A stretch of DNA of 63,905 nt, filler included, from Folioceros fuciformis (taxonomy: Eukaryota): the NCBI GenBank assembly GCA_049999805.1. It is 12 parts of 12 records of this genome, joined end to end, with 100 filler letters (N's around TTAATTAATTAA, not from the genome) between each part and the next. Parts side by side here need not be neighbours in the genome. Positions count along the whole stretch, not along the records: positions 43,196 to 52,388 come from JBNGIO010003982.1; 11 more parts are not named here. One strand, 5' to 3'. The position numbers and the translations under genes are program-made. Within the stretch, counting starts at the first letter, position 1. Each line of letters begins with the position of its first letter. Shown here piece by piece: positions 3,726 to 52,599 of this stretch. The notes beneath the pieces are model-generated. The model saw only the letters and a list, made by a program, of their open reading frames with translations. It did not search any database and had not been told where the DNA came from.

Positions 3726-3729
3726 TTGC

Positions 3730-25204: not shown

Positions 25205-25304
25205 NNNNNNNNNNNNNNNNNNNNNNNNNNNNNNNNNNNNNNNNNNNNTTAATTAATTAANNNNNNNNNNNNNNNNNNNNNNNNNNNNNNNNNNNNNNNN
25301 NNNN

Positions 25305-26162: not shown

Positions 26163-27597
26163 CTCTCACTACCACCAGTTGGACTACCACCGGTCGCCCT
26201 TCCGAAATGGTTGCCCCGNNNNNNNNNNNNNNNNNNNNNNNNNNNNNNNNNNNNNNNNNNNNNNNNNNNNNNNNNNNNNNNNNNNNNNNNNNNNNNNNNN
26301 NNNNNNNNNNNNNNNNNNTTATTTCTATTCCTTATTTTCCAGGAGGAGGGGTGCATATATAAACACCCAAGTGTCCCCGAACCACCAAGGGCCAAGGACA
26401 CTTTTGGGTATGAATACCCCTATCTTATTCACATACCAAGCCGATTTGCTCATTCCTTCACAAAAAAAATCGCAGCCTGCTCATTCTGTTACTCAAAATG
26501 GGAGTATCGAAAGTTTTTTTCCTCTACAGTCGGGAGAGGATAGGGTTAGATTTTGCCTTCCTTCATCCATCATGGCGTACAGGATTTTCCCCTGGTCCAC
26601 CTTGCTCCCTTTTACCACCTCATGCACAAACAGGAGCATATGGTCGGACAGATAATCCTGCTTGCAGACTTGCAGAAAACATAGGAACCATCTAGCGAGA
26701 CCCATCAGCTGCGGGTTGGCCATGTCGCGGACTAGCCACCCATTGGCTTCCTTCTTGGTGCCAGGTTTGAGTAGCCCTTTGGCCTCCGTCGTGCCACCTC
26801 GTTTCTTCAAAGACTCCAACACTAGTCCTCCCTCCTCTTACTGGTCATGGCCATACACTTGCGTTACCAGCTCTAAGTTTCACGCCTGAGGTCTGCCGCG
26901 TATCCCCTCTTCCCGGACGGGCTCTCTCATTTTCAGGGCGCACTCCCTCACTAGCTGCGGCGCCGCATGATTCCACCTCTAGGTCATGAACCCGAGGCCT
27001 AGTTCTCCGACCAGTCCTCCGGCTCTGACTCTCTAGTGCCCCATGTTGGGCCACAGGAGCACATCAATCCTCGGTACAGGGGGGTCTCCCTCTTCCTGCT
27101 CAGGTACCGTTACTTCTGGTAGCAACTCTGGCTACGACCTCATCCTCCCCCGTAATCCGAACCCTGCTACCCTCCCGCGCCCGTGGTTGCCAGCGCTCTC
27201 CACCGGCTCCGCTGTACCGCCTAAGCTTCCACTTCCCTCCGGCCGTCGTCGCACTTCACGGCAACTCCCGCTCCTGCTCCAACTCGTGAAAGTTTCTACT
27301 TTGATTACTGCCTAGGCCCTCCCCTACTTCACCCTAGGGTTTTGTGCTGTCGTTCCCGTTCCACTAATGCCGGTTGGGCTACTGCTGATTTCCCCTTCCC
27401 CGATGGNNNNNNNNNNNNNNNNNNNNNNNNNNNNNNNNNNNNNNNNNNNNTTAATTAATTAANNNNNNNNNNNNNNNNNNNNNNNNNNNNNNNNNNNNNN
27501 NNNNNNTGGGGAGGGCAATGGGAAAGGGAACGGGGGGATCGAGGATTTCTGGTCTCATCTAACGCTCTTCGCCTCGCCTGCGCCATCTCCCTTGCAG

Positions 27598-29444
27598 GTG
27601 CGAACCATTTTTGTCCTAGGGTTTCCCCCAGACGTGAAAGAGCGGGAGTTGCAGAATCTGTTGAGATGGTGGCCCGGCTATGAGGCTTCTCAGATGAATT
27701 TCAAGGCGGATCAACCCATGGGGTTTGCACTCTTCTCTACGTCATCCATGGCCATGGCTGCCCGAGATGCTCTCCAGGTCAGTTGTCTTCTCTCTTCGGC
27801 CCTTCCTGTTGAGACTGAGTAGGGAGTTTTTACTCTTCCCAAGGTTGTAAGGACGTAGTTTTGAGGCATGGATGTTGCATTCAGAACTTGGTATTTGATG
27901 CGGAGACAAATTCAGTTCTTCGTGCGGAAATGGCGAAGAAAAATCTGTATGTGAAGAGAGGTATGACTTGAAATGCCAGGAGCAGATCATCAGAGTGCAT
28001 GCCAAGCATCTGTTTCCTAGACTTTTGCACACTGCTCCTTTCCTTCCAGCTGCTCTGCTGAATCCTCTTGTTGTGGTCTCAGGACTGGCCAGCGGGACAG
28101 CGGAGTCTGGGGGTTACGATCCCAGCAAGAGAATGCGAACTGCAGGAGATTATACACCACCTCCGTACGCAGCGCCTCAGTCTTATCCTCCAGCTGCTGC
28201 ACCTTCTTGGGGCCCTCAAAGGTGGTCTTCCTAGCTGTCGGATTGGATTGGTTACAGCTTGCCTCTGTTTGTCGCCTAGCAGTGTTTTGGACTGTAATGG
28301 TTCCTATTTGCTGTACAATTGGGTGCTGAGTACCTCGTGGGTGCTGGCTGTGCTTTGACATGCAGTTACATTCCGCCTGGAAGTCAATATGACCCTTATG
28401 GTGCCTATCCAGTTGCTCAAGTACCACCCATAGCACCTGCTGGTTATGCGTTTGTTCAGGTGACCAACCTTTCCTTGGCTATGGAGGTCCCTGCGATGCA
28501 GGGCACCTTTGAGGCTCTCTTCTCTTTGTGTCTTAGGTTGGTGACTCCTTTTCCTGGTTTGATAACGTGCAGAACAATAAAGATAATCCTCCGTGCAACA
28601 CCCTGTTTATTGGGAACCTCGGAGAGACGACTAGTGAGCAAGAGTTGCGTGGCTTGTTTAGCAAGTACGATTCTCGCCACCAAAGATTGCCCATAATCTC
28701 TTCTTCCAGACAGACACAACTGCAAAGTGCTTTGCAGTGGGTGCCTTTGGAGCTCGTCTTGCCTGCTAGATGGACGTAGTTGACTCGGGCTGTCTTGCCT
28801 CTGAACACTAAATTGTTGCATGCATCCATTGCAGTCAGCCCGGCTTCCGGCAAATGAAGGTTCTGCGGCAGGGCAAAAGCACAGTTTGCTTCATTGAATT
28901 TGTGGTGAGTACATTTTTGTTGCACGCTGCTCCACCACCCTGCATGCTTGTTAACGTTTCGGAACTCGTTGTGAAGAGGTTGATGAAACTTTCCTGAGGG
29001 AAACTGTGCTGGAGGTGGAGAGTTGATGGTTGTGTTTTACTTGATTTTCTTCCAATCCAGGATGTGAACACAGCAACTGCCGTGCATGGCAACCTTCAAG
29101 GAGCTGTTTTGTCGACTTCAGATCGAGGCGGAATGAGAATACAATATCCTTTTGACATTTGACAGTGCGATGTGGTTTGTGTCTCGTTTGATTCTGCTGG
29201 CAGAAAGAGCAGTTTTCTCCGTTTTGTTGTCGTGTCTCAGTTTTCCCTTGACTTAACTTCTCCCACATATTCGAAAAACCCATATGGGCGAAAACGAGAT
29301 GGAATGGGACCAGTTTCACAACAAGTGGTTGATAATGGAGCTCCAGGTGTGACCGTCTGTCATGAATTGAATGGCAATTCAGATCTGTCAGCATCTGCAC
29401 AGACAAGCACTACTTCAGGTGGAACAGATCAACAAGCTGTATAG
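27598..29444 (+). CDS. Two-RRM RNA-binding protein (RBPMS/Scw1/couch potato-like), 5' truncated; exons 27598-27777, 27885-27960, 28083-28221, 28366-28459, 28573-28664, 28835-28904, 29061-29143, 29267-29444
   Basis: RRM1 VRTIFVLGFPPDVKERELQNLLRW..MGFALF..LRAEMAKKNL. RRM2 NPPCNTLFIGNL..PGFRQMK..VCFIEF..GMRIQYSKNPYG. Splice sites give a continuous frame. Confidence 0.93.
29144..29266 (+). other. U12-type AT-AC intron (123 nt)
   Basis: 5' ATATCCTT, branch point TCCCTTGAC at 29244-29252, 3' AC; removal restores RIQYSKNP. Confidence 0.93.
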
Positions 29445-30930
29445 GCGACGGGATGTTGTCATGTTGGGGTCATGAAGCATTCAGCCGGCAGTTCCTCTAA
29501 AGTGATGTATCTCATTCTTTAAAGCTCACTTGCAGCATGGAAGGTTGGAATCATCGGATCCTGTTGATGCATGAGACTGCAGCATCATGGCTATGATATC
29601 TGTTCTTGTATTTGAGTAGCGACGTGGTCATAAGATTGTGCGCATCATCATCGTGACCATCAGTGGTATTGGCTGATTTTCATTGTATCATGAGATGTAC
29701 ATTGGGAGGGTCTGGCGGGAGGTGCTTTTGGCACCAAGCATGGAGAGATTATCGGTTAAGCATAATTTCTGCAGGGGCATGTTTGAAGACTCTGATTTTA
29801 CTTGGCCAAGGATGCGCATGTTTTTTGCCGGCATCTCGCATACGCATGGCAAGCAGCTTGTGTTGCAGCATGACCTGCCTGGACTATGTTCGAGTTGGTG
29901 TTCCATGCACATCATCTGCTTGGGGATTCGTCCGGAATTATTGGGGGATGGGGGGAGACTGTTGCCCCGGCATCTGTGCGAAATGTTGCTGTTTCCATGT
30001 TGCTCATCTACTTAGGTTGTGTTACTAGGTACTGCCCTTTGCTCGTTTGCTTGGCAAACAAGTAAATTCCAATGATTGAGGACAGTTTGGTAATAGTGCA
30101 GCCCGATCCACACCTGTGCTGGCAGCAGCTTTTTCTTCGACAATGACATGAGGTATTCATGATGTTTGTAGTGGTTCAAATTCTCGTAGCCCCTGGCCAG
30201 AACACCGCTGCTGCTTCTGCTTACGTTGTTGCTTTCTATGTTATGGCTTTTGGAGGCCATTTCATGATGTGCTGTACTCATAAAAAAGAGTTTGGTCTGT
30301 TTTGAGCAATTTCAGTGGTGGCTAGCTAGTGAGTAAGGTGGATGAGGACTGGACAGGACAGAACAGAACAGGACAGGACAAGTGGTGTTTTCCAGAGTCT
30401 AGAATCTTGATTCGAGCTTTGTGATACGGGGCAGTTCGGGGCCTTGACTGATGAGATCCTGGGTTGAAGTTGACAGGCTCGATTTTTTTGGCAGATGTTC
30501 ACTGTTGACGAGGTTAACGAATTGTGTGTGTGTAGGGGACACACCCATTGGTGCAGATTTTCGCTTTCTTTGCACTATGAGCAAGCTTTGTTGTAGGTTG
30601 TTTTGTGTCAAATCCTAGTGCCACTCCAGGCGCTGTCCGCAAACGCCATCCAGGCGTGGTGATTTGTCTCAGAGCCGGCCAGGCCATGTGGAAACCACGG
30701 TCGGGGTAGGTCCACGCTCAGCAATGGAAGCCAGAATTCTGGTTGCGTCCATCGTGATACAACAAACAAGGTGGCCTTGTGTTCTTTTGTCAGGGTTTCC
30801 GAAGCGAAGCCGTGTTCCATGCCTTAATTCCCGATCATAATTCGGTAGTTGTCCACGATGTGCTGACAGGGTTCGCTGAGATTCTGGTGGACTTTTTGTA
30901 TATATTGTCAACACCTCGGTGGTCATCTTG

Positions 30931-31002
30931 GCGTTTGTAGTCCAACGGTCAGGATAATTGCCTTCCAAGCAATAGACCCGGGTTCGACTCCCGGCAGACG
31001 CA
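30931..31002 (+). tRNA. trnG: tRNA-Gly(UCC), nuclear, intronless
   Basis: 72 nt; acceptor stem GCGTTTG/CAGACGC, anticodon arm ATTGC-CTTCCAA-GCAAT, T-loop GGTTCGACTCC, T-run downstream. Confidence 0.97.
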
Positions 31003-31625
31003 CGTTTGCTGTTTTGTTGATTGTCTAAGTGGACCAGGTCACGGTAGTGACAAACGAGGCAGACAACTCAATTTCGAAGTGGGCCAGGTGAAGATAGAGA
31101 CAAACGAGGCAGTCGGGCGGAGGGGAAAAGCATTCATCTTTGATACGCGGTGCAGTTGCGATTGTAGGCGTGGATCTGTCCGTTGGGGTCGATGTTCTCG
31201 GGCGGTGGCATTGCTGGCAGTGGGCCAGAGGAGGGCACGGTGGTGACAAATGACGCCGACAACGTGAGCAACCCCTGAGTAGTCGTGTAAATAAATTCAT
31301 AATAGAGAAGGTCCAGACGCCAGACGGGCGTCCCGTTCCGTCCCGGAAGTCCAGGGCTGCGGAAGAAAAACGTAAGTTGGCANNNNNNNNNNNNNNNNNN
31401 NNNNNNNNNNNNNNNNNNNNNNNNNNNNNNNNNNNNNNNNNNNNNNNNNNNNNNNNNNNNNNNNNNNNNNNNNNNNNNNNNNGAGGGACGGACTACAAAA
31501 GCTCCTCATCTCGGCCGGCCCCATGGGCCTGCCAGCGGCGAGCGGGAAAGCCAAGTCTCGTCTAGAGCGGGAGGCGGAGCCGGAGCCGGAGCCGGGTGCA
31601 GGTGCAGCAGGTGAGAGGGTCCAGG

Positions 31626-32120
31626 ATGGAGAGTCTGGCACCCCCGCCAGCCACCGACCTCCTCCGAGGCCTTCACCCTAGCTTCCCCACCCATGCCCGA
31701 ATCGCCGTTCTCGGCGGAGGCCCCAGCGGCCTGGCCGCCGCGTGGGCCCTGGAGCGCCTGGGTTTCCAACATGTCACCGTGCTGGAGCAGCATCACACCG
31801 TGGGCGGGATGTGCGAGTCCGTCGCCATCCAAGGTTGAATTGCTTTGCCCCTGCCTTTGCTTTGCTTTGCTTGACATTGCATTGCATTGCTGCGTTTCGC
31901 TTCGCTCGCTCTTCCTCGTCGTGCTGGCCACCTGAGAGTCCTCGGGCCGCACATGCATCGGTGGCAGGAAGGACGTATGACCTCGGGGGCCAAGTCCTGG
32001 CGTTGGAGCGGTCGCCGACCATGGCGGCTCTGGCGGCCGAGCTGGGCGTGGAGATGGAGGATCTTGGCGCGCACAAGCACATGGTTCTGGACGTGGAGGC
32101 GGGGGGCGCCGGGCAGGACC
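31626..32120 (+). CDS. 5' fragment of FAD-dependent oxidoreductase (amine oxidase fold), probably the N-terminus of the large plant NRPS-like protein; exons 31626-31833 and 31968-32120+
   Basis: Rossmann motif RIAVLGGGPSGLAAAWAL..VTVLE...VGGMCES, spliced in frame to GRTYDLGGQVLA. Confidence 0.85.
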
Positions 32121-32625
32121 NNNNNNNNNNNNNNNNNNNNNNNNNNNNNNNNNNNNNNNNNNNNTTAATTAATTAANNNNNNNNNNNNNNNNNNNNNNNN
32201 NNNNNNNNNNNNNNNNNNNNCAACACCACCAGTGGAGATCCAACTCCTGATTCTAGCCCAAGCCCCGAGCGTTGCGGGAAAAGGGACGACGACCTCATCA
32301 AGTATAGATAAAGAATCCCTCTAGCAACGCTGTCGCAACCATAGGCTAACAGTTGGACGAAGTTTCGAGCGCAAAGCCCCAGCCCGACTCAGAGCCGACA
32401 CATGGTATACAGAGACATCAAAATCAGACAGACCTGAGAAACTCCCCACCTTTGACACCACAGCCAGAGCCACCTAAGCAAGGGAGCCGAAACCAGTGGC
32501 GAATAAAAGATGAGCCCTGGCAAGCACACCCGCCGCGTTGCGCTGCTCTGGTCCACTCCAGGATCGGAAAGCCCGTGAATTGACACAAACACGTGACGGA
32601 AGTCTGAATGACATGGAGAACCTAC

Positions 32626-32724
32626 CTCCAGAGCACATCCCGCCGACGTCAGCACGGACAATGTCAAGTAGGAGCGAGTGATGATAGGCATCTGCTTGTA
32701 CCAATCCTCCACCATCTGCGCCAT
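32626..32724 (-). CDS. DER2: Derlin-2, first coding exon (rest beyond the scaffold end)
   Basis: MAQMVEDWYKQMPIITRSYLTLSVLTSAGCALE followed by a GTAGG donor; matches the conserved plant Derlin-2 N-terminus as I recall it. Confidence 0.9.
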
Positions 32725-34374
32725 AGCGGGACACGCCTCAGCCCTGCTTCAGAATACTGTTCAACCGAGGCCAGGAATTGCGTCACAGTCCCCTGGGCTG
32801 CACCACAGTGTCCCCCCCGCAAATACTAAATCAGCCTCGCTGGACCAGCTGCAGCTCTTCCCACCAGGAGAGTAGGAGCCAACCCTGCTTTGTTTGACCC
32901 ACCGACAACAGTGCCACGGATCAGGCGCAGACAAGCTGCTGCAATTCAGCTGCCAAATTCCCCACACGGCAACAGATTCAACACAGATGATAGCGTCCAA
33001 GTGCAGCCAGATACCTATCAAAGATAGGGCAGGTGGGTCTCGGATCGTAGCGGTGCCCGCTTTATACAGTAACTACCCAGCCAACTTGACAGCATGCACG
33101 GACGTCCATATGTAGGTAGAATGTTGAATCCCGATCCTCGGTGCTCCTTAGATCAAAGTGTGATTCATACCGCAAGGGTCTGGCTCTGGCTCTGGCTCCG
33201 GCTCCGGCTCTGTTGCTGAAGACATCACTTGTCGCGCTCTTCTAAGGACGGCCATGAATTACAGAAATCATTTCTTATCCTTGAAGTATATTTTGATATA
33301 TAATTATGATATCTGTTGACCTATTTTCTCAACCTTATCACAGGATGAACTCCAACCCGCGTCATGTGACTCCACCATTCTACTCTCGATGCTTTGCTTT
33401 CTCCAAGCGCCTGATTGCCTTGGACCATTATCAATCACCTGACGGACAGATCCTTTCAAATCTTCCACCCTTCCTACCTATATGGTTCTCCAGTTTGTAT
33501 GCTTCTTGCTAACAATGCTCTTGATTAAGATGTTTTTTACTTGATTTCAATCTCCTTGGTTTTCTGTTTTCGTGTCCATACTTGTCTAGGTAGAATCGTC
33601 CTAATGGTGCTTATTGGAGACACATTGCGGGGTAGAGTCTACCTTAGCCCGTGTAATGAAATTTATATGTGTGAAGTAAGTTGCATTATATTTAAAGAAT
33701 ACAAAACCTCTCAACCAATTTGGATAAGCTAAAGCTTGCAATCTCTACATGCAGCTCTAGCTTATCCACAACATGATCTATCCCGTCCACAACCACATGC
33801 CTCTGAAATTAATTACAACTACGATGGAGGAAGCATTTTGTGAACACAATACATATAAACACATATGAAATCAAACCAAGGGTATAGATGAAGACAAGCG
33901 TCGTGGGGGAGACCCATGGGGCTATAGGCAAGGACTTTTCAAGAAGAAGAAGGATGAAAATATGCATGTTTTGCAAGGGAGAATACTTATGGACTTTAGC
34001 GCTTGCACAACCCTCCACCGTTCATCCAAGAGGGTTGATGGCAACGTGCTCACAAATCGAATCTCTAGTAGGATCCGTAACAACCACATCAGCAACACAA
34101 ACTTGTTCTTTCCTAGTGAAAAAATTTCGTCTCTAAGTGAAAATCCGTTGCTCAAAGTATATAGACACTCCCCATATGGAAGAAACCCACATTCCCTTGC
34201 TATTGACAAACCTAACATCCCAAAACTGCATTATGGGTGGCAATGCAATGTACTCCGATAGGACAACATGCTAGATGGGACCCTGTGTCAACACTCGCAA
34301 CCTCACAACTGCATGTAGAGAGAGAAAAAGCCAAAGGGTGGGCCAAACCTAAGCAAAATCTCATCACGCTCCCG

Positions 34375-34602: not shown

Positions 34603-34604
34603 CT

Positions 34605-34897
34605 TGAGGGATCGCTAGAGGAGCCACATGGTGAAGGAGGAGAGGAGGAAGCAAGGAGGAGAGGAGAGAGCAAGGTCTCTCACACCCTCTCACACTCTAT
34701 ATTACAAGAGAGCTCAAGAGGGTATATATGCCCTCCAAAAGAGCTCCCAAGGAAGCTTCACAAGAAGCGCACACGAAGCTGCGCAAGAAGCTTCCTATAG
34801 ATAAGCTTAAGCTAATCTAAACTAATGATACTTAACTAGACACTAATCTTAGACTAACCACATTAGTCTAAGCACATTGGGCTTTAATAACCTTATA
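34605..34897 (-). mobile_element. Family A LTR, full length
   Basis: Reverse complement of the 2471-2742 and 49467-49753 sequence; no TSD or PBS seen. Confidence 0.9.
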
Positions 34898-37190
34898 GAG
34901 GGGTCCCTGTAGGCAAGGAGGGTAAGGAGGTGGAATTTTTCAGTGGTATCTACCAAAAGGAGGGTCGTCTCTTTGCTGATATTCGGCTAAAGCAAGTCAA
35001 TGGTTCCCAATATACCACTTAACCCATAGTGGAGGTGGTCCTTGGATGCGCCTTGGGCGAAAGAAAGGTTTGGGGGTCCACACTTGGCAGCGAGTGATGT
35101 CGAGGGGCCCTTAGCTGGTCAGGATTGGAGGCCCGCCCCTACGACGCGCAAGTCGGAAAGGCTTCAAAGATTGTCCCTCGAGCTAAAAGCTAAGGACCAT
35201 CTGGCGCGGCCTAAGTCAGTGATTGGGGCTAGGATGCCCGAGCCATGTTTTGTCCGGAATCTCTCAAGCAAGTCTCATTAAATGAGTATCGACACTTTGA
35301 AAAATTATGATAGGGGGTCTCATTTGCGGATCATTTTCCTGGAANNNNNNNNNNNNNNNNNNNNNNNNNNNNNNNNNNNNNNNNNNNNNNNNNNNNNNNN
35401 NNNNNNNNNNNNNNNNNNNNNNNNNNNNNNNNNNNNNNNNNNNNGCACTTCTCCGTCTAACTCCTTGGACAAGGACTTGGTGCAGGCTAAGGGGGCGCAA
35501 GATGTGTACCCTCCTCCAGGGCAGGAGGTGTACCACTTGCTTAGTGGTCAGGAGCTTAGGAAGGCAGAAGGTACAACAAGGAGAAAAGGCAGACTTTTTG
35601 CGATCAACCCAACGGTTATGAGAAAGGTAATGGATGCGCCTTGGGCGAAAGACAGGTTTGGGGGTCCAAACACGGCAGTGAGTGATGTCAAGGGGCCCTT
35701 AGCTGGTCAGGATTGGAGGACCGCTCCTGCGATTCGCAAGTTCGAAAGGCTTCAAAGATTGTCCCTTGAGCAAAAAGCTAAGGACCATCTGGCGTGGCCT
35801 AAGTCAATGACTGGGGCTAGGATGCCCAAGCTGTTTGCTGTCCGGAATCTCTCAAGCAAGTCCCGTTAAATGAGTATCGACACTCTGAAAAACTACGAAA
35901 GGGGGTCTCACTTGCGGATAATTTCCTGGAATGTTAGGGGTCTGGGGGGATGGTCGAAGACGGCGTCGAAGTGTAGAAGACTTAAGAAACTGCTAGAAGA
36001 GGAAGTCACTTGGGATGTGGTGTGCTTGCAAGAGCATAAATTGTCCTTGGAGCACATCCAAAAAGTGAAGAAAATCTTTCTTCCTGGGAGAACTGAATGC
36101 GCAGCAGCTAGAGCAGAGGATACAAGAGGTGGACAAATCTCTTCTCAACGAGTTTCAGCAACTCGTGGAGGTGTGTCCACGACAGTTCACCCACAGCAAA
36201 CCCATAATATCCTAGAATCGGGACAAGATGAGGATGGGAGGTTTGTGTGGATGGTGCTACAAACACCTCAAGGTCCGGTTGGAATATGTAATATTTATGC
36301 GCCGAATGCTGCCGTGGACAGAAGTATCCTCTAGAGTAGGCTGGGTGAACAGCTTGATGAGCAGATTCCGTGGATGCTGGTTGGCGATTTCAACTTTGTT
36401 GAACGCCGAGAGGACATCCGTGGGGATAGCCCAGGTGATGTTCGAGCGGTGCCTATGTCTTGGTAGGAGCTGAGAGATACGATCTTGGTGGTGCAGGATC
36501 CTTGGGTGGCCCTCCCGGCGCATCGCCAACCATAGTCCTTGATGTTCAGTTGGTCCAACCAACAACAACAGAACTTGGGTGCGCGCAGGTTGGATAGGTG
36601 GCTGGCCTTTGTACAGTCGTACAGCATTCTCGCTGGTACGATTCTTTCGGACCACCACCCTATTAGTTTGCACTTGAGGCTCGCTCCTAAGCCGGAGCGT
36701 CTAAGGAGGCATTTGCAAAATTTTCAGATGAACACCTCCTTACTGAAGGACAAAGGTGTCTTTGAAGACATCAAAAACATATGGCAAGGAGTGGAACGGG
36801 GGGAAGAAAATGCGGTGATCAAACTGAAGCATGTTAACACTGAGGTGACTAGGTATTTGAGGAGGCGAGGGGTGCAACGGGCTGGCTGCAAAGGAGCTGC
36901 GAGAGTCGGGATTTCACTGATGCGAAAGTGGCCCGTAAAACGGAGGTGCAATGCACCTTGGCCAAGCTGGAAGAAGACAGGGCCAGAGGCTGGTTTAAGC
37001 GGGCTAAAATTAAATGGGTGAGGGAGGGGGATGGCCCCTCTAAATTCTTCTTTGACAAGGTGGCCTCTAATTGGCATAGGGTGCAAATCCCTGCCCTCCC
37101 GAACGCGCGTGGCGTGGTGCAAGAATCTCTTGAAGGTTTAAAACTCTCATTACCCTCTTCTTTGTTAGCATTTTCTCTAGTGTTGGGAAG
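34898..37190 (+). mobile_element. Decayed LINE (L1/Tx1-like): ORF1 end and ORF2 APE endonuclease
   Basis: RIISWNVRGLG, VVCLQEHK, ICNIYAPN, WMLVGDFN, RRLDRW, LSDHHP, then RAKIKWVREGDGPSKFFF; in-frame stops. Confidence 0.92.
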
Positions 37191-41757: not shown

Positions 41758-43949
41758 TGGGTCGTAGGCAGGATAGAGGCTCTGTCGTTGGTGCTATAGA
41801 AGATCACCCTGCAGGTTATGTGAACGTGTCTTAATTTCAGCTTCTTCCAAGTCTGTGAGTGCGAGCTCACAAACTGGGAGTCTCCTCTGTGTCGTCTGTG
41901 AGCTTGCAAATGCAACCCTTCACCTTTTTCTGGCTAAACCCAAGGCAGTGCAAGTGAGTTTCACCATAAGCTGTTGGGTGTGCCACCAGGCACTCAATTC
42001 CCGCAGTACAGCAGAGTGACGGGTTTGCTGGACGATTCCATTGTTGCCGGTGTCATCAGCAAATCGTCTTCCGCACTGAAGTGTTATGACTTGTTGGTAG
42101 GGGCCACTACCAAACCCGAGGTCATTTGTGCGAGCATGTGACGATTTGGAGGTGTGTTCTCCTGTCCCTTAATGCTCCTAGGTCAGAAACTCATGGAGGT
42201 AGTCATGGCGGGATTCTTTGTGAGCCTCGAACTCAGTTGATATCACCTCTGTGGACTTCAGCCAAAGACTCCCGGACCGTTTCTGAATCCAGCTCTTTCC
42301 TGCGCGGCATCGTCTTTGCAATTAAGTACGGGCGGGCAATATTTGATCCCAAGGTAGGAGAGAAGTCTCTGGTAAGGTGACTATTTCGTAATCTCTTGTC
42401 TGCTGGTTGTTGCTGCATCGCCGTGTCATGGTGCCGTATGATGTGACTGTGTTGGGAGGTGAGCTGCAGATGCTGCAAGGCTGGACAAGGGGGAGGGACA
42501 TTGTGCTGACCAGTGGTGTTGCAAATGGGATGGAGGTAAGGGGGCCCAACAATGCTGCAAATTTGTCCACGGACCGAGGTCTAACTCCGGAATTTGCAAA
42601 GGCTGCTGTTTCCTAAAATTCCAGGTAGTAGCTTACCTCAGTATTGTGCCCATAGTCCTCGTATGGTATGCAGTGCGTGCCAATCTGGTCTGTTGTCAAC
42701 TGCGGCACTTCTGGTGTCTAAGGGAAGGGACCTGTTTTTTCCTTAAGTCAGCTCTTCTGCGTTGAGCCCCAGAGGAGCCACAGTTGCGCAACATTACGCT
42801 GCTGACAGGGGTGACGTGTTCGCATTGTGTAATGGAGAGGGAACACCAGCTAACGACCTCGATGGCTAACCTGGTGGGTGTGTGGCTGCAGGATATGGAA
42901 GACGCACGAGACAGGGCCTATCATGCAAGCCTGGAGTGTGTGGGCTATTTGCCGGATGCGTACTAGCTGCATAGGACGGTGACTGCAATGTGCCTATACT
43001 GCAGGCGCAGGGGAATGCGCCTTCAGGACATGTTGTGGACGTGGGTGGAGGATGATTGCACCATGTGGACATGGCGAGCAATAAATCTACTGCGCNNNNN
43101 NNNNNNNNNNNNNNNNNNNNNNNNNNNNNNNNNNNNNNNTTAATTAATTAANNNNNNNNNNNNNNNNNNNNNNNNNNNNNNNNNNNNNNNNNNNNGCAGG
43201 TTAAGCAGAAGACTTCGGAAGCATATAGATATATTATTCATTGAAGACACTTTTATTCTAGCATATGGATTTGACTTGACACGCCAAAAATAGCTTCCCT
43301 CCCGAATGAGGACTCTCATTTGCAGAAACCTATACGTCCTCAATCACGATAAGGATACACAGCTACTTGAAAATAATGAAAACTTGTTAGACGTTTAGAT
43401 AAAAGTATTAAGTACAAACTGGTATGATAATTTTTGTATGTAGCGGCAGGCAAGTTTCGCTTTCCACTTGCCATACATGTGACTTAGGCAGTGTGCGCCG
43501 GTCTACCGGCGCACTTTTGCTTGTTTTGCGCCGGTTCACTGGCGGTCTATCCCGCAACCATTTCTGGAAAATGCAAACAAATATCGACGGGTGATAATTT
43601 TCAAAAATAGGGTCACTTGATATGAGGTATAGCTCAAACACTTAGGACTTTACATGGAATCAGATAACACGTGAATTACGTGATACCCGCCATATTGCGC
43701 AGTTTTGTCATGTATTTGAATGCAATGACACCCGCAAATTTGCTAGTACTTTTGAAAAAATTGATGTTTACGTTCATACTCAACACTCTTTTAGGCCACA
43801 TTTAGGGTTCTCTTGACAAAGATGCATGAAAATGCAGATATCTAACACGAGTTTTGAGCGTCAAAATCTCACGAAGCCCGAAATGGTGGAATACGCTCGT
43901 CTGGGTTAGTTCTTCACCTGGTGAAGAACAGGCTATGCAGCAGTCCAAT

Positions 43950-46900
43950 TTTACGGAGACCAAACTTTATTAAGGAATTTGTGTTGTATACTGGTTAGAG
44001 CAAGCTTGGATTGGGTGTAGTGCTAGCATAAGTTTTTGGGGATGGAGAAGAACACCCTATTGCTTATGCTAGTCGTAGTACAAACGTAGCAGAGACGAAC
44101 TATTGCTCTTACGAAGGAGAGTGTCTAGCACTTTTGTAGGCAGTGATGCATTTCCGAGTCTTATTTACATGGACGAAGATTTAAAGTTGTCATAGATCAT
44201 CAACCATTGCATTGGTTGATGATAAACAATAAGTTGACACGAAAACTTATTAGGTGGGCTATGATCTTGCAAGAGTTTGACTTCACTATAACACATCATG
44301 CGGTAAAGACACATTTGACTGCTAATGCTCTATCCAAGAACCCATTGGAAAGTAGCATGGATCTTAATGAGGCGCAACATGATTGGATCATGACATTGCA
44401 GATCGTCACTGTGAGTCAAAACTTGGCTGACCTCGCAACGTATGAACTAGAGGAGGAAGCCTATGTCATGAGGGCCAATTGTGTTTGAGATGCATGGGCA
44501 GATCAGCAATTAATGGATTACATTTGGATTGGCCATATAGCTGATGGGACTAGTCAACGGTACAAGGATCAGCTGTAGCACAGAGCAAAACGATACATGT
44601 GGGATATAGCAAGCTGTACATGTTGCAGTCTAATGGTCAGCATAAGGTGGTGCCAGCACCAACGGAGCGTGAGGCATTGGTTATGCAAGTGCATGAGCAA
44701 CTGGGACATTTTGGTGTCAAACGCACGTTGAGCATGTTAACGCTAGGATGTTGTTGGGTAGGCATGCACAAGCAAGTGCAGGAGACTATTGCCAGGTGCG
44801 AATCATTTGATCGAATCAAGGCAAGATTCATGGCGAATCATGTGGTGCTTCATTCTCTACCTATAAGAGGATTGTTCTACAGGTGGAGAGTTGACTTGCT
44901 GCCGGAATTGCCAAGGACGTCACAAGGAAATCATCACATGATGTTGATGATTGAGTACTTCTCCAAATGGATTGAACTTGCTGTCTTTCATGAGAAGACG
45001 TCATACAACCCTAGCTAGGCATTTTTGCAATGTGTGTTGTCAAGGTTTGGTGCATGTGTTGAAGTTGTGATGGATCAAGGATAAGAGTTTAGAGGGTAAT
45101 TTCAATAGCTTATGGACAAGGCGCTCATTGATTATCGCCGCACAAGCAGGGATCATCTGCAAGCAAATGGTTTGGCTAAAAGGGGAGTGCAAATTGTCAA
45201 GTGTGCCCTACGGAAGTATTTCTTGCAAAATAGCACAAAAGATTGGGATGAAGTGGCACCATACATGTTGCTTGGCTATCAGGTAAGCACTCAAGCTGCG
45301 CTTAATAACTTTTCTCCATATTTTCTATTGTTTAAGAGACATCCACAATTGCCTAATGTGCAATAAGCTGCTATGGAAAGACCAATATCATGGCAAGATG
45401 TGGATGGTTGCATGAGAGAGTTGCAAAGACGGGCAATGTTGTTTCAGCATATATTGCCAATGGCAACGAAAAATTTGGCCATTGCACGTTGATAGGGACA
45501 AACTGCGCTATGCTCATACAAAAGAAGGAAGCTGGAAGCCCAAAGTGCATCGATTCAAACCTTGTGATTTCGTATATTTGGCTCAGCAACCTTTGGATAC
45601 ACTTGATAGTAGTCCTGAGCGCACAATTTTGCAGGTGGTTGTTGTCAAGGACACTGGGGTGGTGGAGTTGGAGGGATCTAATGGATGAAGGTGGCAAGAT
45701 CATTTGAAGAACCTACCTCCTTGTCATTTGCCAGATCTGAATCCAAAGCTACAACCTAAGACTTGGATACCACCCAAGGACTTGGAATGCCGCATTTGAG
45801 GTCACACTAATGAAGAAGATGCCATGCTCTTGTGCGACCGTTGCAATCAAGAGTATCACCTGTTTTGTCTATAGCCAGCCTTGGAAGAAGTACCGCAAGA
45901 AGATTGGTTTTGCCCAGACTGCAAAGTTGCTAAAGCTATGAGCCAGCAACCTAATCTTCATTAACACGTGATACAAGTTGATGGATGATTGATGTTGTGT
46001 TCAAGATTCATATGTATGTTTGAATTGATAGAGCTATAGCACCATCCTACAGTGTTTAATGTGTGTGTAATGTGGCATGGTGTGAGTATTGTTAACTAAT
46101 GAACCATGCATGAGTGCGATGTTTAGCGGCATAGCACGACACGTGGGAACCATTATGGAGACGCTACAAGGGTGAAGGTGATTGGACCGGAGGCAAACTC
46201 AGCCACCATGGGAACAATTGCAGGGGAAGGCTTTGTAGGCAACCATCCAGCAACAAGGAGGCGACGCCCACCAGATCTAGAAGAGCAATCAAGATCTACA
46301 AGGGCTGTTGGTAGGGTCACCAAGGGGGCTGGCGGCTCATCAAGTTGATGGTAGGGTAGACTAACCTAGATTAGTACTTTGACGTAGTCTACTAGTTTAG
46401 TTGTCGCGTCGTAGTAGTCACCGTGTAGAGAGAGGAAGTGGGACTAGAGATAGGAGTCTTTTATAAGAGGCTATGAGCCTCTAGAACCCACTTGTCACTT
46501 AACGCTCTCTCTCGGGCTATCCCTACTTGGTTGAAGCACCATGTGTTGGCTATGTGTGTTCCACAGCGCTTGGTAAAGCTTTGCGGAGCAGTGGCCAGGG
46601 TTAAGGGCTAGGCCCTTCATTTTTTATCGTGTCATTGGTATCATGTCCCTATGATATATCCCTCTTGTTTCCTCATAGGACTAGAGTGTATGCTGGCCAT
46701 GATTGCATAGTGTCTAGTAGGATCATGGGAAGTGACTTGTTTTTCTTTGGAGTTAGTCTAGTTGAGTTACTCTTGCCGAGTGGTGGAGTCAATAGGGAAG
46801 TACAGAAGGTAGTTGTATTGCTGTTGGTGTTGGAGTGAGCGAGTGAGTGAGGAAAATCAAAGACCTGAGAGATAAGTGTCATTGTGGTGGTTGTAGTGAA

Positions 46901-47246
46901 TGTGTCAACACCAGGAGAGGTGCAATCGACCGCTGGACAACGAGGACTATCCCATCCCTGATCAAAGATATAGGAGAGCCCTCAAATCTGTCATTGAGTT
47001 GATATGAGTGTGTTGAAGTTGTGAGAACTGTCCAGTCATAGGGATACTATGCTCAATACATATTCTTAAGGGCTGGCAGCTGCTATGGGCTATGCGTGTA
47101 AAAAGTTTGACCCTCCATCCATAGTAGGGAGGAACCCCATCTCTCCTTCGTGGGAATGAAACCCAATGTCTCAACGACAGTGGGATAAGTGTGGACACTA
47201 GAGGTCAAATCCCTGGTAGACAGTTGCCTGGGGTTTTGCTACCACA
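43950..47246 (+). mobile_element. Decayed Ty3/gypsy 3' half: RNase H, integrase, PHD finger, PPT and ~1-kb 3' LTR (46234-47246)
   Basis: PIAYASR, DHQPLHWL, HEQLGHFG, EYFSKWIE, QANGLAKR; PHD at 45788-45921; purine tract caggggaagg then TGT...ACA. LTR ends are inferred from termini only. Confidence 0.88.
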
Positions 47247-47659
47247 CTAACACCTCATGCTTAACATCTTATTAGACCTAGGATTTATTTGCCTACTAAC
47301 ATGTAGGACTAACAAAACAACACTACAAGACGCCCATAGACCTATACCCCTAATGGCCGTAGGTCAAACCTACAAAATCAGACTAACTGTCTTCTTAATA
47401 GTTCCACTCCTCCTAACACAAATAATAGGATAGACAAGTAAAATATAGTTAAATATAGATATTTCAGACCTACCACACACGTATGTATGCTTGACTTGTA
47501 AGCTGACCACCAAAGACCAAGGAAAACTAAGCAAGACTTAAAAAGACACATAATAGAAAAAGAAACAAACCAAACCACACATTGGACAAAACAGTGAAAA
47601 CGATAGAATAGGAGCCCATCCCATATCCCAAAATTTCTCGTTCCACATAAGTAGCAAAC

Positions 47660-48330
47660 AAAAAGTAAAGTACCAGATTATTAATGGTGATATGACGGAA
47701 ATGGTTGCCTACTTAGGTAAGCAGGAGTACAAGCTTCTTGTATTGGATTTGCCAAGAGGGAACTACGTAGAACTATGGGATAAGGAGCTAACGCTAAAAG
47801 ACCTCGAGAAGATAATGGAGGGCTTTTTTAAAGTTACCGAGTGTCAAACATTCCGTGTCATCGGCGTGCGCAGGCCAGACCAAATGTAAGACGTTAGCGA
47901 TGGGTTGTGCAAATGGTGTGTAAAGGGGGGCGTGTACACTATGGTCTGGGAAAAAGGCAACGTTGTCGCGGAGGAGGGGCTATACGAAAACTTCGAGTAC
48001 ATGACAATAGGATATGGGATTCACCCATTGAATGAAGATATTTGGAGAAGCAACGCCCTTAGCAACAGTGCAGCAAAGGAGATTGGAGCTATGCTTGGGA
48101 TCATCAAGCAAATCATCGTCATTAAGAAACTTCTAGACGTGTCGAATGACGGATGGGTAGTAAATCCTTATCAAAAGCCACTTGAATTGATGGTTCTCTT
48201 ATGTGGCTCTTCTTCTCTTGGAGAATGGATAATAGACGAATGTTCTAGGAGCAAGAGTGGAGTTCTTTCAGCGCCGGTGGAGGGGCAGAAATGTATCGCC
48301 ATCAACGAGTAACAGTGCCATACCATTTTT
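47660..48330 (+). pseudogene. Beta-class N4-cytosine/N6-adenine DNA methyltransferase-like domain, decayed
   Basis: One frame with internal stops: YQIINGDMTEM..YKLLVLDLPRG (DPPY position), TMVWEK, NPYQKPLELMVLL..SSLGEWIIDECSRSKS (FxGxG position) ..EGQKCIAINE. Confidence 0.72.
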
Positions 48331-49466
48331 AACGAGCAAAGAATAACAAGGCATGAAGTGTTTCTATCCGATGAGAAGGAGTTGATGAAGAAGCCTCACA
48401 CCATGGATATTCATTGTTTTTTGCTAGAGAGCTTTCAAGTGGAAGGTCTTTTAAACCAAGGGCACAGATAATGCAAATGGTGCAAGGGAAGATTGCTTCT
48501 ATGGACCTCATTGAACGTAGTCAAACTCAAGGATATGTAAAGAAGAGGATAAAGGGGAGAGGAAAGGAAGCTGAGAACCCAGCAGCAAGTGATTTGAAAA
48601 AGGTTCTAGAGTGACACCCCAATGATGAAACATGGGACTTAGAGCAACTTGAAACATTCTCGAGCGTAACCTCACCGAGACCATTAGTGGACAAACCCGA
48701 AGAACCAAATTCAAGACCAAGCCAAGAAGTAATGGGGACGACATCATTGTCCTCATGATAGAGAGGCAAGAATCCTTCAAGGTTCAAGGCTAGGCAACGT
48801 CGCATGATAAGCAGGATAGAATATACTTGTAGAGGTGCGCACTTGTGCACACCAAGAACAGCTTATTTCATTTCAAACAGTGCATCTATTTATGGGGAGT
48901 GTCATCAGCGCCTTCTTCCGCTCTCACCTTTCCTCACAAAACCATACTTAATAAAAACACAATAGGCTAACTGTCGAACTTGCCCAACTCGTATTTGGCA
49001 AAATTGCAAGAATTTGGAGGCTATGGAGTGGACACGAGTGTGAACAAAAAACAGAAAGAAGGGTCTAGGGAGAGACCCGATTTATTTTAGATGTTGTTTA
49101 TACGCTCCCGACTCATCTTTGGCAACTGATGTGTGTTGGAACAACGCCTATCTCACCGCATCTTCCATCTTTTCCTGCAACCATGAAAAATTAAGTGCAA
49201 CATGATGGGAAGGGATAGAAAACTCCTTCTTTATGTCCTCCGCCTTTTTCCAACAAGACTTTACCTTGTTTCATAGGTGCCTAATGAAGAACAACCCTTT
49301 ATCGACTAGCTGCACCAAAAATCTAGGACTGATACACTCGAAGGACAAATTCTTCAGCCCATAGTTCTCAAAAACATTGTAGGGGAATACCTAGCACATA
49401 ATCCATGCTTAGAGGTTTGGTTGAGAGGAGAAAAGCTTTGACCTCTATACATAAATACCTTCGTAT

Positions 49467-51130
49467 TGTAGGGTTCTTAAAGCCCAATGTGCTTGTACTA
49501 ATGTGTTTAGTCTAAGATTAGTGTCTAGTTAAGTATCGTTTGTTTAGATTAGCTTAAGCTAATCTGTAGGAAGCTTCTTGCGCAGCTTCCTGTGCGCTTC
49601 TTGTGAAGCTTCCTTGGGAGCTCTTCTAGAGGGTATAAATACCCCCTTGAGCTCCCTTGCTATTGAGACACTGAGAGTGTGACCTCTCTTTCTCCTCTCC
49701 TCCCTGCTTCCTCCTCTCCTCCTTCACCATGTGGCTCCTCTAGCGATCCTTCAACTAGTGTCAGTGCAGGTGTGGAGCAAGATGGTGATGTCCGTAGGTG
49801 GTGCGGACAAGATAAGGATGGCAACATCGGAGCGACCGGGAGTCTGTATGTGGCATCCGAGGTGCAGGGTCTCAACCCCACTGTGCTCAGGCCACGGCAG
49901 CGCGAAGCAGGAGCGGGAGTGCGGGGCACCGGGAGGGTGCTCCCGCGCCATGAGGGGTGTCTGCCTCGGGGCGCCGTCTGCACCAAGTGCCTGGGGCGCG
50001 GGTGCCCAGGACGCCGCAGGCCCCATGCGTTGGGAGGCGGACGCCCCGGCCACAGGGCGCTGCCAGCCCGCGGGTGCGAGCATGGACTGTCCTAGGGCGG
50101 GGTGCCAGGGCGCCAGGGTGCCAGCCCGGCGCAGGTGCCAGAAACCCGGGCGCTAGGGTGCCAGTCCGGCCAGGGCGCCAGGGAGCGCCATTCGCCGGAG
50201 CGCCATAACGCGGGCATGGACATCACGGGAGTTGAGGCGCAGGTGACGCAAGCGACGCGGGTGCAGACGAGAGTGCGGGCGTAGACGCGAGTGCAGGCAA
50301 CGCGGGCGCAGGTGCTGGGCAGGGGCGACGCAGACATGAGCCAGCCAAGATCCCGGCCTCGAGGTGGCCAAATTTCGATCGGAGGTCGTGACACTCCAGT
50401 TATGAGCGACCGAGGCCTAAATTGTGAACAGCCGATTTGGAACAAGTTGCGAGGGTAACTTTTAGAATCTCCATTACATTTCAACCGTTTTCTAACGAGC
50501 CTTTTGCTTGATTTGCATCAATTTTGAATCATGACATTCTCAGAAAACGTCATGTTCAATATCAAGAAGTTAGATGGTACTAACTTTTCGTTCTGGAAAG
50601 GACCAGTGTATAATGTTCTAGTGCAGAAGAAGTAGATCAAGCTCATAAAGTTGCTAGGAGTGAAACCTATTACCATGACTCAAGATGAGTGGCAGGATCT
50701 AGATGAGCTTGCTAGATCTACCATCATGCTAACATTGTCGAAGTCGGTCTACTTTAATGTGAAAGACAAGACCACAAGTTACGAGGTATGGCACAAGTTG
50801 TGTGACCTATATGAGAAGCAAAGTGCGGCTTCTCAGGTGTACTGGTTGAAACAGCTGGTGGACTTGAAGATGAAGGAAGGGACGAGGATGTCCGATCATC
50901 TGAATGAGTTCAATACCATTTTCAGCCAGCTCTCATCTCAAGGTATGACGTTCCCAGATTTTGTGAGAGCTATGTTTCTGTTCGCCACATTATCAAAGAG
51001 TTGGGACACCTTTCGTACAGCTCTGAGTAATTCCGCTCCTGCCAGTGGTCTCATCATTGTAAATGTAGAAGGTAGCTTGTTAACAGAGGAGGTGAACAGG
51101 AAGAATATGGAACCTTCGAAAGGTTCCAAT
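49467..51130 (+). mobile_element. Family A Ty1/copia 5' part: LTR 49467-49753, decayed PBS, GC-rich leader, gag from ~50531
   Basis: gag FNIKKLDGTNFSFWK..ARSTIMLTLS..LKMKEGTRMSDHLNEF (Tnt1/Tork-like); one internal stop. Confidence 0.9.
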
Positions 51131-51850
51131 TGTAGGGTTATTAAAGCCCAATGTGCTTAGACTAATGTGTTTAGTCTAAGATTAATGTCTAATTAAGTAT
51201 CATTAGTTCATATTAGCTTAAGNNNNNNNNNNNNNNNNNNNNNNNNNNNNNNNNNNNNNNNNNNNNNNNNNNNNNNNNNNNNNNNNNNNNNNNNNNNNNN
51301 NNNNNNNNNNNNNNNNNNNNNNCTAAGATTAATGTCTAATTAAGTATCATTAGTTCATATTAGCTTAAGGTAATTTGTAGGAAGCTTCTTACGCAGCTTC
51401 CCGTGCGGTTCTTGTGAAGCTTCGTAGGGAGCTTTTCTAGAGGGTATAAATACCCCCTTGACCTCCCTTGCAATGTGAGACATTGTGAGAGTGTGACCTC
51501 TCTTTCTCCTCTCCTCCTTCACCATGTGGCTTCTCTAGCGATTCTTCAAGTGGTATCAGAGCCTGGTGTGGCTGCAAGATGGTGATGTCCCTGGTACTGC
51601 GAACAAGGTGCTCAAGGCGGTTGTGAGGGAGGCTCAAGGCGGTTGTGAGGAGGCATTGGAGTGGCCGTATGCGGCATCCGATGGAGCGGAGCGTGGGGCG
51701 CCGAGAGGTAGACGATCCCGGCCGCAGGCGCCAGGTGGGCGCCCCAGCGGAAGGGCGCAAGCCCCGGGCTGCAGGGGCGCCGTCAGGCCCCCCCGGCCGC
51801 CGCGGTTGGCCATGCCGGGGCGCCAAGCCCCTTAGAGGGTGCTGTCGTGC
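51131..51850 (+). mobile_element. Second family A element nested in gag: LTR 51131-51548, PBS 51551-51562, GC-rich leader
   Basis: TG...CA followed by agTGGTATCAGAGC (initiator tRNA-Met PBS). Confidence 0.9.
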
Positions 51851-52599
51851 GAGGCACATAGCAGACGGTCAAGCTGGTGATAAGTCTGGCAACCTCCAGC
51901 CAGGAGCATCAGCTGAATAACACAACACATACCAAAGAAAGTGGTAAGAAGGTTAGCATCACGCAAGGTGCAGAGCACTGGGAAAATGTGGAACCCCCAT
52001 CCTAGACATGGAATCTGCTCACACGCAGATTTCTGGACGTTTTTGTTGGAAGAACTTGATTGACGGGCTGCCTATGCCAGGCATCTTGGAGTCGGGTAAA
52101 TGACACCACGTGCTGCAGCAAGATACGAAGAACATCAATCCTTACAACTCTTGAGCCCAAATACGGCTGGAACAACAAAAGCAATTGAGTTTCTAAGATA
52201 GCGGCAGGCACTCTCCCTTGGTGCGACTTCGATGACTAGGAGCTTCCATCTCCATCTCCAGGGTTTAGCGTGGCGGCCATGGTTGACGTTAGCGATTCTG
52301 GTGCGGGCTTGCCTCTTTGAGTCATGATCATTTGGTTGGACTCACACTCTCAGTGTGAGCCCACGGTTTTCAGCAGGCCAGTTGCAAGNNNNNNNNNNNN
52401 NNNNNNNNNNNNNNNNNNNNNNNNNNNNNNNNTTAATTAATTAANNNNNNNNNNNNNNNNNNNNNNNNNNNNNNNNNNNNNNNNNNNNCAGCGCCTGGCT
52501 CCGGCGGCCTGCCTGGCCGTGCCTAGGCGCCCGGCTCCGGTGGCCAAGGGGCCTGGCGCCAGCTATGCACCATTTGACAGTTCCTACATAGGCATATAA

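Follow-up and report, generated by a model that had tools for sequence, protein, structure and literature searches.

A decayed beta-class methyltransferase domain in Folioceros fuciformis probably derives from a eukaryotic family related to phage ParB-methylase fusions

Introduction

Fusions of a ParB-fold domain with an N6_N4_Mtase domain (PF01555) are enriched in phages and prophages, according to the accessible part of a recent preprint (bioRxiv 10.1101/2025.10.10.680097). In eukaryotes, a PF01555 methylase and a ParB-like domain occur among the accessory genes of red-algal Plavaka elements, where, as far as the available portion of that source describes them, PAG2 combines the methylase with SET and PAG3 combines the ParB-like domain with a 2-oxoglutarate (2OG) oxygenase (bioRxiv 10.1101/2025.02.11.637652). 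Here we describe the relic of a methyltransferase domain in a stretch of DNA from Folioceros fuciformis (assembly GCA_049999805.1) and compare it with these and other systems. The whole stretch analyzed, referred to below as the window, is 63,905 nucleotides (nt) long and consists of 12 parts joined end to end, which are not necessarily genomic neighbors; positions 43,196 to 52,388, which include the relic, come from JBNGIO010003982.1.

Other methylases have been reported from eukaryotes. The transposable-element (TE) proteins known as DAM-TEs, found on DIRS and long terminal repeat (LTR) retrotransposons, are Dam/T4-Dam-like with an Asn-Pro-Pro triplet, and the available part of their description gives DAM-LTRs as absent from Streptophyta (bioRxiv 10.64898/2026.05.21.726589). 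The Marchantia proteins MpDN4MT1a/b carry a TSPPY motif and cluster with N4-methylcytosine (4mC) enzymes in the accessible sections of the corresponding preprint (bioRxiv 10.1101/2021.02.12.428880). A 2015 survey of eukaryotic adenine methylases, in the portion available, describes such enzymes as few in land plants and lists no ParB-fused permuted clade there (PMC4738411).

Results

Reading frame and methyltransferase identity

Two stop-to-stop open reading frames (ORFs), 47557 to 47889 and 47890 to 48312 (+), share one frame. A preliminary description of this DNA, made from the sequence alone, had read them together as a decayed, prokaryote-like beta-class methyltransferase copy among plant retroelements, with no introns evident. 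The strings quoted there, YQIINGDMTEMVAYLGKQEYKLLVLDLPRG, TMVWEK, and NPYQKPLELMVLLCGSSSLGEWIIDECSRSKSGVLSAPVEGQKCIAINE, are all present exactly in the read-through translation, and the account of the frame is upheld, as relatives align through both stops as a single frame +1 segment. By tblastn, the 18 family proteins defined below match the window at one place only, each as one frame +1 segment within 47584 to 48465; residues 60 to 323 of the relative P0002 align on 47659 to 48378 (E = 2e-30), and the P0004 segment extends to 48399. Homology begins at about 47659 and runs past 48330, where the preliminary description had ended the feature, through the second stop to about 48399. We therefore delimit the locus as follows.

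47659 to 48399 (+), relic of the methyltransferase domain, in a single frame and colinear with relatives, without frameshift or intron

Upstream of the relic there is no tblastn match to the N-terminal parts of relatives. Several family members match at 23360 to 23431 (-), beside a run of N's, at E values of 0.016 to 0.4; this place has stops and one motif only, and we took it as chance.

The relatives were found with the 252-residue read-through as a phmmer query against 1.84 billion representative proteins. This search gave 22 matches at an E value of at most 1e-3, the best at 1.7e-21, 1.7e-20, and 1.6e-12, aligned over residues 37 to 250. Four of them (P0009, P0012, P0016, and P0017) are long, repeat-rich bacterial surface proteins that match over short stretches and lack PF01555; these were dropped. 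Among the 18 true relatives, 16 exceed the curated PF01555 cut-off of 26.7 bits, P0014 reaches 25.0 bits, and P0015 is an N-terminal fragment with no Pfam match. As judged from these alignments, the resemblance of the relic to methyltransferase relatives is far beyond chance.

A profile made from 14 relatives (A2) was run against solved structures. It matched M1.HpyAVI ("DpnA"; 4.5e-14), CcrM (1.5e-12), M.BceJIV (8urk; 5.7e-12), M.MboIIA (1.7e-11), and M.RsrI (4e-10), versus only 2e-7 for the bdelloid N4-cytosine methylase (N4CMT). The AlphaFold model of P0002, which is a relative and not the relic, has a predicted TM score (pTM) of 0.74 and a beta-class methyltransferase fold; its best folds are CcrM (6e-11), MboIIA, RsrI, HpyAVI, BceJIV, and N4CMT, with E values from 6e-11 to 5e-9 (6e-11 to 4e-9 for the first four). 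The relic has the permuted order in which motif IV precedes motif I, with DLPRG (47746 to 47760) ahead of DECSRSKSG (48235 to 48261), and is colinear with its relatives and with 8urk. We read it as a beta-class N6_N4 amino-methyltransferase domain. This assignment is sound, though transitive, since PF01555 misses the relic itself while 16 of the 18 relatives pass its cut-off. Methyltransferase matches were found with both the family profile and the P0002 fold, and with the relatives they bear out the core of the preliminary description.

Motifs and damage

The conserved positions of the domain and the lesions that it has suffered are as follows.

47746 to 47760 (+), motif IV position, with DLPRG instead of DPPY-G (translation; alignment with 8urk)
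47887 to 47889 (+), in-frame TAA inside the domain, at a position where relatives have a normal amino acid within the DDM-S/V-LV stretch
47947 to 47955 (+), conserved W-x-K (VWEKGN), retained; W131 and K133 nearly invariant; site of the relatives' first intron
48163 to 48180 (+), NPYQKP, the family version of HPTQKP, retained; Q206 and K207 nearly invariant
48235 to 48261 (+), motif I, the glycine loop that binds S-adenosylmethionine (SAM), decayed; DECSRSKSG versus DGCSGSGS in relatives
48310 to 48312 (+), second in-frame TAA; relatives continue, with homology for about 30 codons further (segments to 48378-48399)

The canonical form of motif IV is (D/N/S)-P-P-(Y/F/W), and it is observed as DPPYG in 8urk and in the prokaryotic locus L027. 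When the family is aligned with 8urk, its consensus aDiPyGl corresponds to ADPPYGL, which identifies this position as motif IV, and the relic and its clade, with D-L-P-R, lack the canonical form there. DLPRG is common to the relic, P0002, P0003, P0004, and P0015; other family members have D-[IV]-P-[YH]-G, and 31 loci from metagenomes have DIPYG, DVPYG, or DIPHG. Likewise, NPYQKP occurs in most metagenome relatives, and HPTQKP occurs in L027. Because DLPRG also occurs in ORFs that are intact in other respects, SAM loop included, the comparison marks it as a clade character and not as decay of the relic.

Decay is seen at motif I. The xGxG loop, which is GSGS or GTGS in relatives, is RSKS in the relic; in P0002 numbering, the invariant G282 has become K and the nearly invariant G280 has become R, and the motif I Asp is kept. 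The relic also has no start codon and no N-terminal region. Given the stops, the loss of the SAM-loop glycines, the missing start codon, and the long branch described below, the relic is, on its sequence, dead and would produce no enzyme. The stops and altered catalytic motifs mentioned in the preliminary description therefore stand in part: there are two stops and a decayed motif I, but DLPRG belongs to intact relatives as well.

Family, tree, and architecture of the relatives

One relative, P0007, is a 670-residue gene model from Ginkgo biloba that has both a ParB-like half and a methylase half. Metagenome contigs yielded 134 relatives, and 80 of them were retained. Many of these loci are on eukaryote-like contigs, where the methylase is preceded on its own strand by a ~560-residue ORF containing GGxHSxEARRQL and is followed by an acidic tail. 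An AlphaFold model of the N-domain (predicted local distance difference test [pLDDT], 77) has Noc/ParB as its best folds (E values of 2e-4 to 4e-3; probability, 1.00), followed by sulfiredoxin. Pfam ParB_N matched none of seven N-domain rows, the only match being DUF6551 at an E value of 0.019 in one of the seven. A profile of the N-domain alignment (A3) gave only methylase matches in the PDB because two of its rows included the methylase half, and it was discarded. Thus, the N-domain of the relatives is predicted to be ParB-like from the fold search. At the locus itself this ParB/sulfiredoxin-fold domain is missing, as no part of the window gave a tblastn match to the N-domains.

When compared with the Ginkgo protein, all five loci inspected (L011, L025, L031, L076, and L078) have two GT-AG introns at the same positions. 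Intron 1 follows the W of W-x-K, and intron 2 lies inside the GSGT loop of motif I, between GSG and T. The relic is continuous across both conserved positions; it therefore shows the trait of a processed pseudogene in that the introns present in all five inspected relatives are absent.

A maximum-likelihood tree was constructed with nine prokaryotic ParB-methylases as a comparison; P0015, which has no C-terminal half, was left out. The relic falls within the clade of P0002, P0003, P0004, and P0006 (support, 98/94), of which P0006 is without motif IV, and its end branch measures 1.29 versus 0.35 to 0.77 in the other four members. The eukaryote-like family as a whole is monophyletic versus the nine prokaryotic sequences (support, 100/98). 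In the prokaryotic locus L027, a Pfam ParB_N match accompanies DPPYG and HPTQKP in their canonical form, and the nearest outgroup in the protein search consists of prokaryotic and phage proteins named "DNA modification methylase" with PF02195 and PF01555. In IMG/VR there are only five distant phage loci, covering at most about 110 C-terminal residues, and among ESM Atlas clusters, those nearest to P0003 are for the most part viral (Uroviricota). A word-indexed search with the clade alignment (A4) returned P0002, P0003, and P0006 plus the distant P0060 and no further members.

The simplest reading is that a phage-type ParB-methylase entered eukaryotes, gained introns, and diversified. Our literature search found no description of plant members of this family; preprint supplements might contain one. 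The family is rare, eukaryotic, and apparently undescribed, and the relic is a dead fossil of it. For the preliminary description, the absence of any intact homologue would have left a dead fossil only; intact relatives exist, so the locus is more than an isolated fossil.

Copies and surroundings of the relic

From three DNA runs of this organism, contigs with a likeness of at least 80% were placed on the window. Over 47472 to 48272, the summed contig depth, which is not a copy number, is 57 to 86 in run X1 versus 8.5 to 11 for the exact-match contigs there, and contig depth drops to about 15 to 22 beyond 48540. Seven contigs carry a variant at 48024, and single contigs have different internal deletions, joining, for example, 47828 to 47977, 48110 to 48316, or 48197 to 48405. 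Because these variant contigs are distinct, there are several diverged copies in the same organism, and the relic is part of a low-copy dispersed repeat. Run X4, guessed to be RNA, has no contig on 47472 to 49340, which is not evidence on expression. With regard to run X3, C>T (468) and G>A (260) prevail among the differences between its contigs and the window over 43200 to 51200; X1 and X2, which come from the same sample, do not show this. X3 looks like a bisulfite- or enzymatically converted library and could give 5-methylcytosine (5mC) over the relic and its neighbors.

No transposase, reverse transcriptase, integrase, or recombinase is tied to the relic. Retroelement fragments lie on both sides of it.

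44147 to 45015 (+), Ty3/gypsy pol fragment with RNase H and an integrase zinc domain (PF17917, E = 7e-10; PF17921, E = 4e-12)
50636 to 51157 (+), copia-type gag fragment, downstream of the relic (PF14223, E = 2.9e-32)

The gypsy fragment is 2.6 kb upstream of the relic on the same strand, and its membership in the relic's element is not demonstrated. Other copia and gypsy pieces and a LINE-like (long interspersed nuclear element) ORF elsewhere in the window make this a retroelement-rich stretch. The preliminary description called the family possibly TE-borne; the diverged copies in this organism lend plausibility to this, but no element that carries the relic was recognized.

In the metagenome assemblies, many paralogues occur within one assembly, with 68 to 99% nucleotide identity over about 3.0 to 3.4 kb and unrelated flanks; L018 and L019, for instance, are 99.3% identical over 3159 nt. 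Beside the intact family member of locus L006, a 379-residue ORF at 1945 to 3081 (-) matches DUF7869 (E = 3.4e-7), and its nearest Atlas clusters are eukaryotic and patchy (Mollusca, Streptophyta, and Cnidaria). It may be a mobile-element protein; we found no mention of DUF7869 in the literature.

Other features of the window

A Pfam-type domain scan of ORFs of at least 60 amino acids gave no family at an E value of up to 0.1 in 45071 to 47430, and no Rfam family or tRNA was found within 46000 to 50000. Just upstream of the relic, the segment 46938 to 47204 (core, about 47086 to 47205) has a summed contig depth of ~48,700 in X1 versus ~10 for single-copy contigs, and contigs from the presumed RNA run cover it as well. 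This segment looks like a very high-copy short repeat, for which Rfam and tRNA searches gave nothing. A second repeat, of ~290 nt, is present in four copies that are 78 to 88% alike (2469 to 2742; 34604 to 34895 [-]; 49465 to 49811; and 51323 to 51607), one of them 1.1 kb downstream of the relic, and has a summed depth of about 25,000 to 33,000 in the DNA runs. A contig joint between 49530 and 51150 represents a form of the region without the intervening 1.6 kb. The window contains 34 runs of N's, namely, pairs of 44 N's with 12 bases between the two members, which alternate with runs of 100 N's, plus one run of 10 N's; since these break several retroelement ORFs, element borders within the window are unreliable.

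A long imperfect tandem array, 70 to 82% self-similar at many offsets, occupies 3634 to 5062. Several of its frames are open on both strands and encode Pro/Leu-rich or Ala/Asn/Gly/Val-rich peptides. Directly beside it is an intact pentatricopeptide repeat (PPR)-DYW gene at 5156 to 8401 (-), encoding 1082 residues with an E motif and a DYW deaminase domain (PF14432, E = 1.9e-32) that starts with ...KKPAMVTIEV... and ends with ...CSCKGRP in place of DYW. We take this protein to resemble the "DYW:KP" variants that, in hornworts, lycophytes, and ferns, are tied to U-to-C editing of RNA; this likeness would group the organism with those plants. At 35043 to 36331 (+), a 300-nt duplication (35043 to 35344 and 35631 to 35931; 89% alike) runs into an ORF with ...WNVRGLGG...CLQEHKL..., which resembles a LINE apurinic-endonuclease domain; Pfam gave no match for it at an E value of up to 1e-4.

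Discussion

Origin of the relic

Most probably, the relic is a non-functional, 5'-truncated copy of the methyltransferase domain from a rare eukaryotic family descended from phage ParB-N6_N4-methylase fusions. The family would have originated from fusions of a ParB-fold domain and an N6_N4 methylase of the kind typical of phages and prophages, and its full form has a ParB-like N-domain and two conserved spliceosomal introns within the methylase domain. In the relic, or in the founder of its clade, a spliced transcript would then have been reverse transcribed, and dispersal within a low-copy repeat in a retroelement-rich genome would have followed. A 5'-truncated, intronless copy among retroelements is the outcome expected from reverse transcription of a spliced mRNA.

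Several results weigh against this explanation. Searched directly, the relic itself matched no Pfam family even at an E value of 10, so that the HMMER comparison of the read-through with PF01555, suggested in the preliminary description as a check, failed. NCBIfam gave none, and PDB sequences gave only a chance nucleoside-diphosphate-kinase stretch (E = 1.5). The depth excess over the relic is no count of copies. By eye, no poly(A) tract was seen in 48400 to 49200. There is no target-site duplication, the direct repeats of 45000 to 49500 amounting to only two pairs of 16 to 18 nt with unrelated spacings of 1954 and 3039 nt, and no LTR pair or terminal inverted repeat was found around the relic. 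Proteins of the DLPRG clade may have intronless genes, and the lack of introns thus need not be the relic's own event. Furthermore, just two stops in about 250 codons mean that decay is not extreme. Among the other direct searches, a word-indexed protein search with the relic returned nothing, and PHROGs provided the sole direct hint, one "methyltransferase" family at a non-significant E value of 0.32 over residues 201 to 249. Because a poly(A) tract, target-site duplication, LTR pair, and terminal inverted repeat are all missing, both the retroposition of the relic and its dispersal as part of a carrying element are steps that we infer.

A credible alternative, to which we give somewhat less than an even chance, is that the relic represents part of a mobile-element accessory gene, from either a large DNA transposon such as red-algal Plavaka or an LTR retrotransposon with an extra ORF after integrase, and was spread by transposition of the element rather than by retroposition of a host mRNA. 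The several diverged copies in the same organism agree with this possibility, as do the metagenome paralogues of about 3.0 to 3.4 kb that are 68 to 99% alike with differing flanks, the DUF7869 ORF of patchy eukaryotic range beside L006, and the gypsy pol fragment 2.6 kb upstream on the same strand. The Plavaka elements, with a PF01555 methylase gene and a ParB-like gene in the available part of their description, offer a precedent. However, no transposase, reverse transcriptase, or integrase is linked by a shared repeat boundary, no terminal inverted repeat or LTR flanks the relic, the unit shared by the metagenome paralogues is the gene alone, and the window has no DUF7869 match. The absence of introns fits an RNA intermediate, though an LTR element would give the same result.

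Two further scenarios are very improbable. One would make the relic the remnant of an integrated DNA virus, or of a recent direct transfer from a phage or bacterium, so that it would not belong to a resident eukaryotic family. A ParB domain combined with an N6_N4 methylase is indeed typical of phages in the accessible part of the literature, the nearest ESM Atlas clusters of P0003 are mostly Uroviricota, and the nearest outgroup is made of prokaryotic and phage PF02195 plus PF01555 proteins. Yet spliceosomal introns of the GT-AG type occur in the closest relatives, one of which is a gene model from Ginkgo; the family is monophyletic versus the sampled prokaryotic fusions (100/98); and IMG/VR gave just five distant matches, none covering more than about 110 C-terminal residues. 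Plant retroelements flank the relic, a PPR-DYW gene is in the window, and the non-canonical DxP[YHR]G is common to the relic and the eukaryote-like loci, in contrast to the DPPYG and HPTQKP of the prokaryotic L027. It is just as improbable that the locus is part of a live gene with a working or regulatory methyltransferase-like product, in which the TAA at 47887 lies in an unrecognized intron, is an assembly error, or is read through. Only two stops interrupt about 280 codons, an unusually open frame, and W-x-K, NPYQKP, and the D of motif I are retained. Nevertheless, the stop falls within a conserved block and away from both family intron positions, and both SAM-loop glycines are replaced. 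An exact-match contig from an independent run of the same sample (47754 to 49038, 0 differences) indicates that the second stop is not an assembly-specific error. The missing start codon and N-terminal region and the long branch also speak against a live gene.

Likely function and meaning

The relic has no function. Its intact relatives of the DIPYG type, by contrast with the DLPRG clade, are predicted to be SAM-dependent N6-adenine DNA methylases because they have the motif IV Asp with an aromatic residue, because the closest solved enzymes have this activity, and because their SAM loop is intact. Catalysis is not necessarily abolished when the first Pro is lost, as adenine methylases of the Erm/KsgA type function with an N-[IL]-P-Y motif. 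In the DLPRG clade, catalysis is doubtful since Arg takes the place of the stacking aromatic, and these proteins may be SAM- or DNA-binding pseudo-enzymes. By analogy with phage counterparts, as presented in the available part of the literature, the role of the ParB-fold domain may be to bring the enzyme onto DNA or to bind a nucleotide.

We would advance only tentatively, as possible and on the whole unlikely, a broader interpretation: that the relic is the trace of an undescribed mobile or lineage-amplified eukaryotic family, a phage-derived and intron-gaining fusion of a ParB-fold domain with a beta-class adenine methyltransferase, present in land plants (Ginkgo and this organism) and other eukaryotes. 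Its DLPRG sub-clade would have exchanged the base-stacking aromatic for Arg and kept SAM binding. Such proteins could mark or bind the DNA of their own element as a TE-borne epigenetic modifier or anti-silencing factor, in a lineage thought to be without such N6-methyladenine (6mA) writers.

The importance of the locus lies in the family that it reveals, namely, intron-bearing, multi-copy eukaryotic fusions of a ParB-fold domain and a beta-class methyltransferase with a non-canonical catalytic motif, and not in the relic. This family includes a Ginkgo gene model and has intact members in other eukaryotes. If those members are active, or are SAM- and DNA-binding pseudo-enzymes on mobile elements, they would constitute a new and testable link between mobile DNA and adenine methylation in plants.

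Comparison with known systems

DAM-TEs share with this family, in the accessible part of their description, the idea of a prokaryote-derived adenine methylase on eukaryotic retroelements, but they belong to another methylase class. We ruled out a Dam-type retrotransposon methylase for the relic, as there is no PF02086 match and no reverse transcriptase or recombinase is linked to it; among the relatives, PF02086 matches are marginal only (E values of 0.05 to 0.06 in two proteins).

The 4mC writers MpDN4MT1a/b and bdelloid N4CMT are, like the family, horizontally derived eukaryotic beta-class amino-methyltransferases, and N4CMT is among the fold matches (E = 5e-9). In contrast, where the Marchantia motif TSPPY has Ser, in the available part of its description, the relic and all relatives have D, and adenine enzymes outscore N4CMT. 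A ParB domain does not figure in the accessible descriptions of MpDN4MT1 or N4CMT. The 4mC/6mA family suggested in the preliminary description is thus retained as an amino-methyltransferase family, but it is unlike Marchantia DN4MT1, with D and not S in motif IV and with adenine enzymes scoring above the N4-cytosine enzyme.

The likeness to Plavaka PAG2 and PAG3, as far as the available portion of that source describes them, consists of a PF01555 methylase and a ParB-like domain encoded by multi-copy accessory genes in eukaryotic genomes. There the domains are in separate proteins, with SET and oxygenase partners, of defined CACTA-type elements, whereas our family fuses them; neither a SET nor an oxygenase domain was seen in it, nor were transposon ends.

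The solved N6-adenine enzymes CcrM (6pbd), M.MboIIA (1g60), M.RsrI (1eg2), M1.HpyAVI (5hek), and M.BceJIV (8urk) differ from the family in that the latter replaces the first Pro of DPPY; the relic's clade has also exchanged the aromatic for Arg, and the relic itself has lost the SAM loop. Fold and motif order are the same, and the family profile matches these enzymes at E values of 1e-14 to 4e-10.

From the phage and prophage fusions of PF02195 and PF01555, the family differs by its introns, by long N- and C-terminal extensions of low complexity, and by D[ILV]P[YHR]G with NPYQKP in place of DPPYG with HPTQKP, and the copy in the window is without any ParB part. What the full-length relatives have in common with those fusions is the order of the two domains and the permuted beta-class methylase, and by sequence the phage and prophage fusions are the nearest outgroup of the family.

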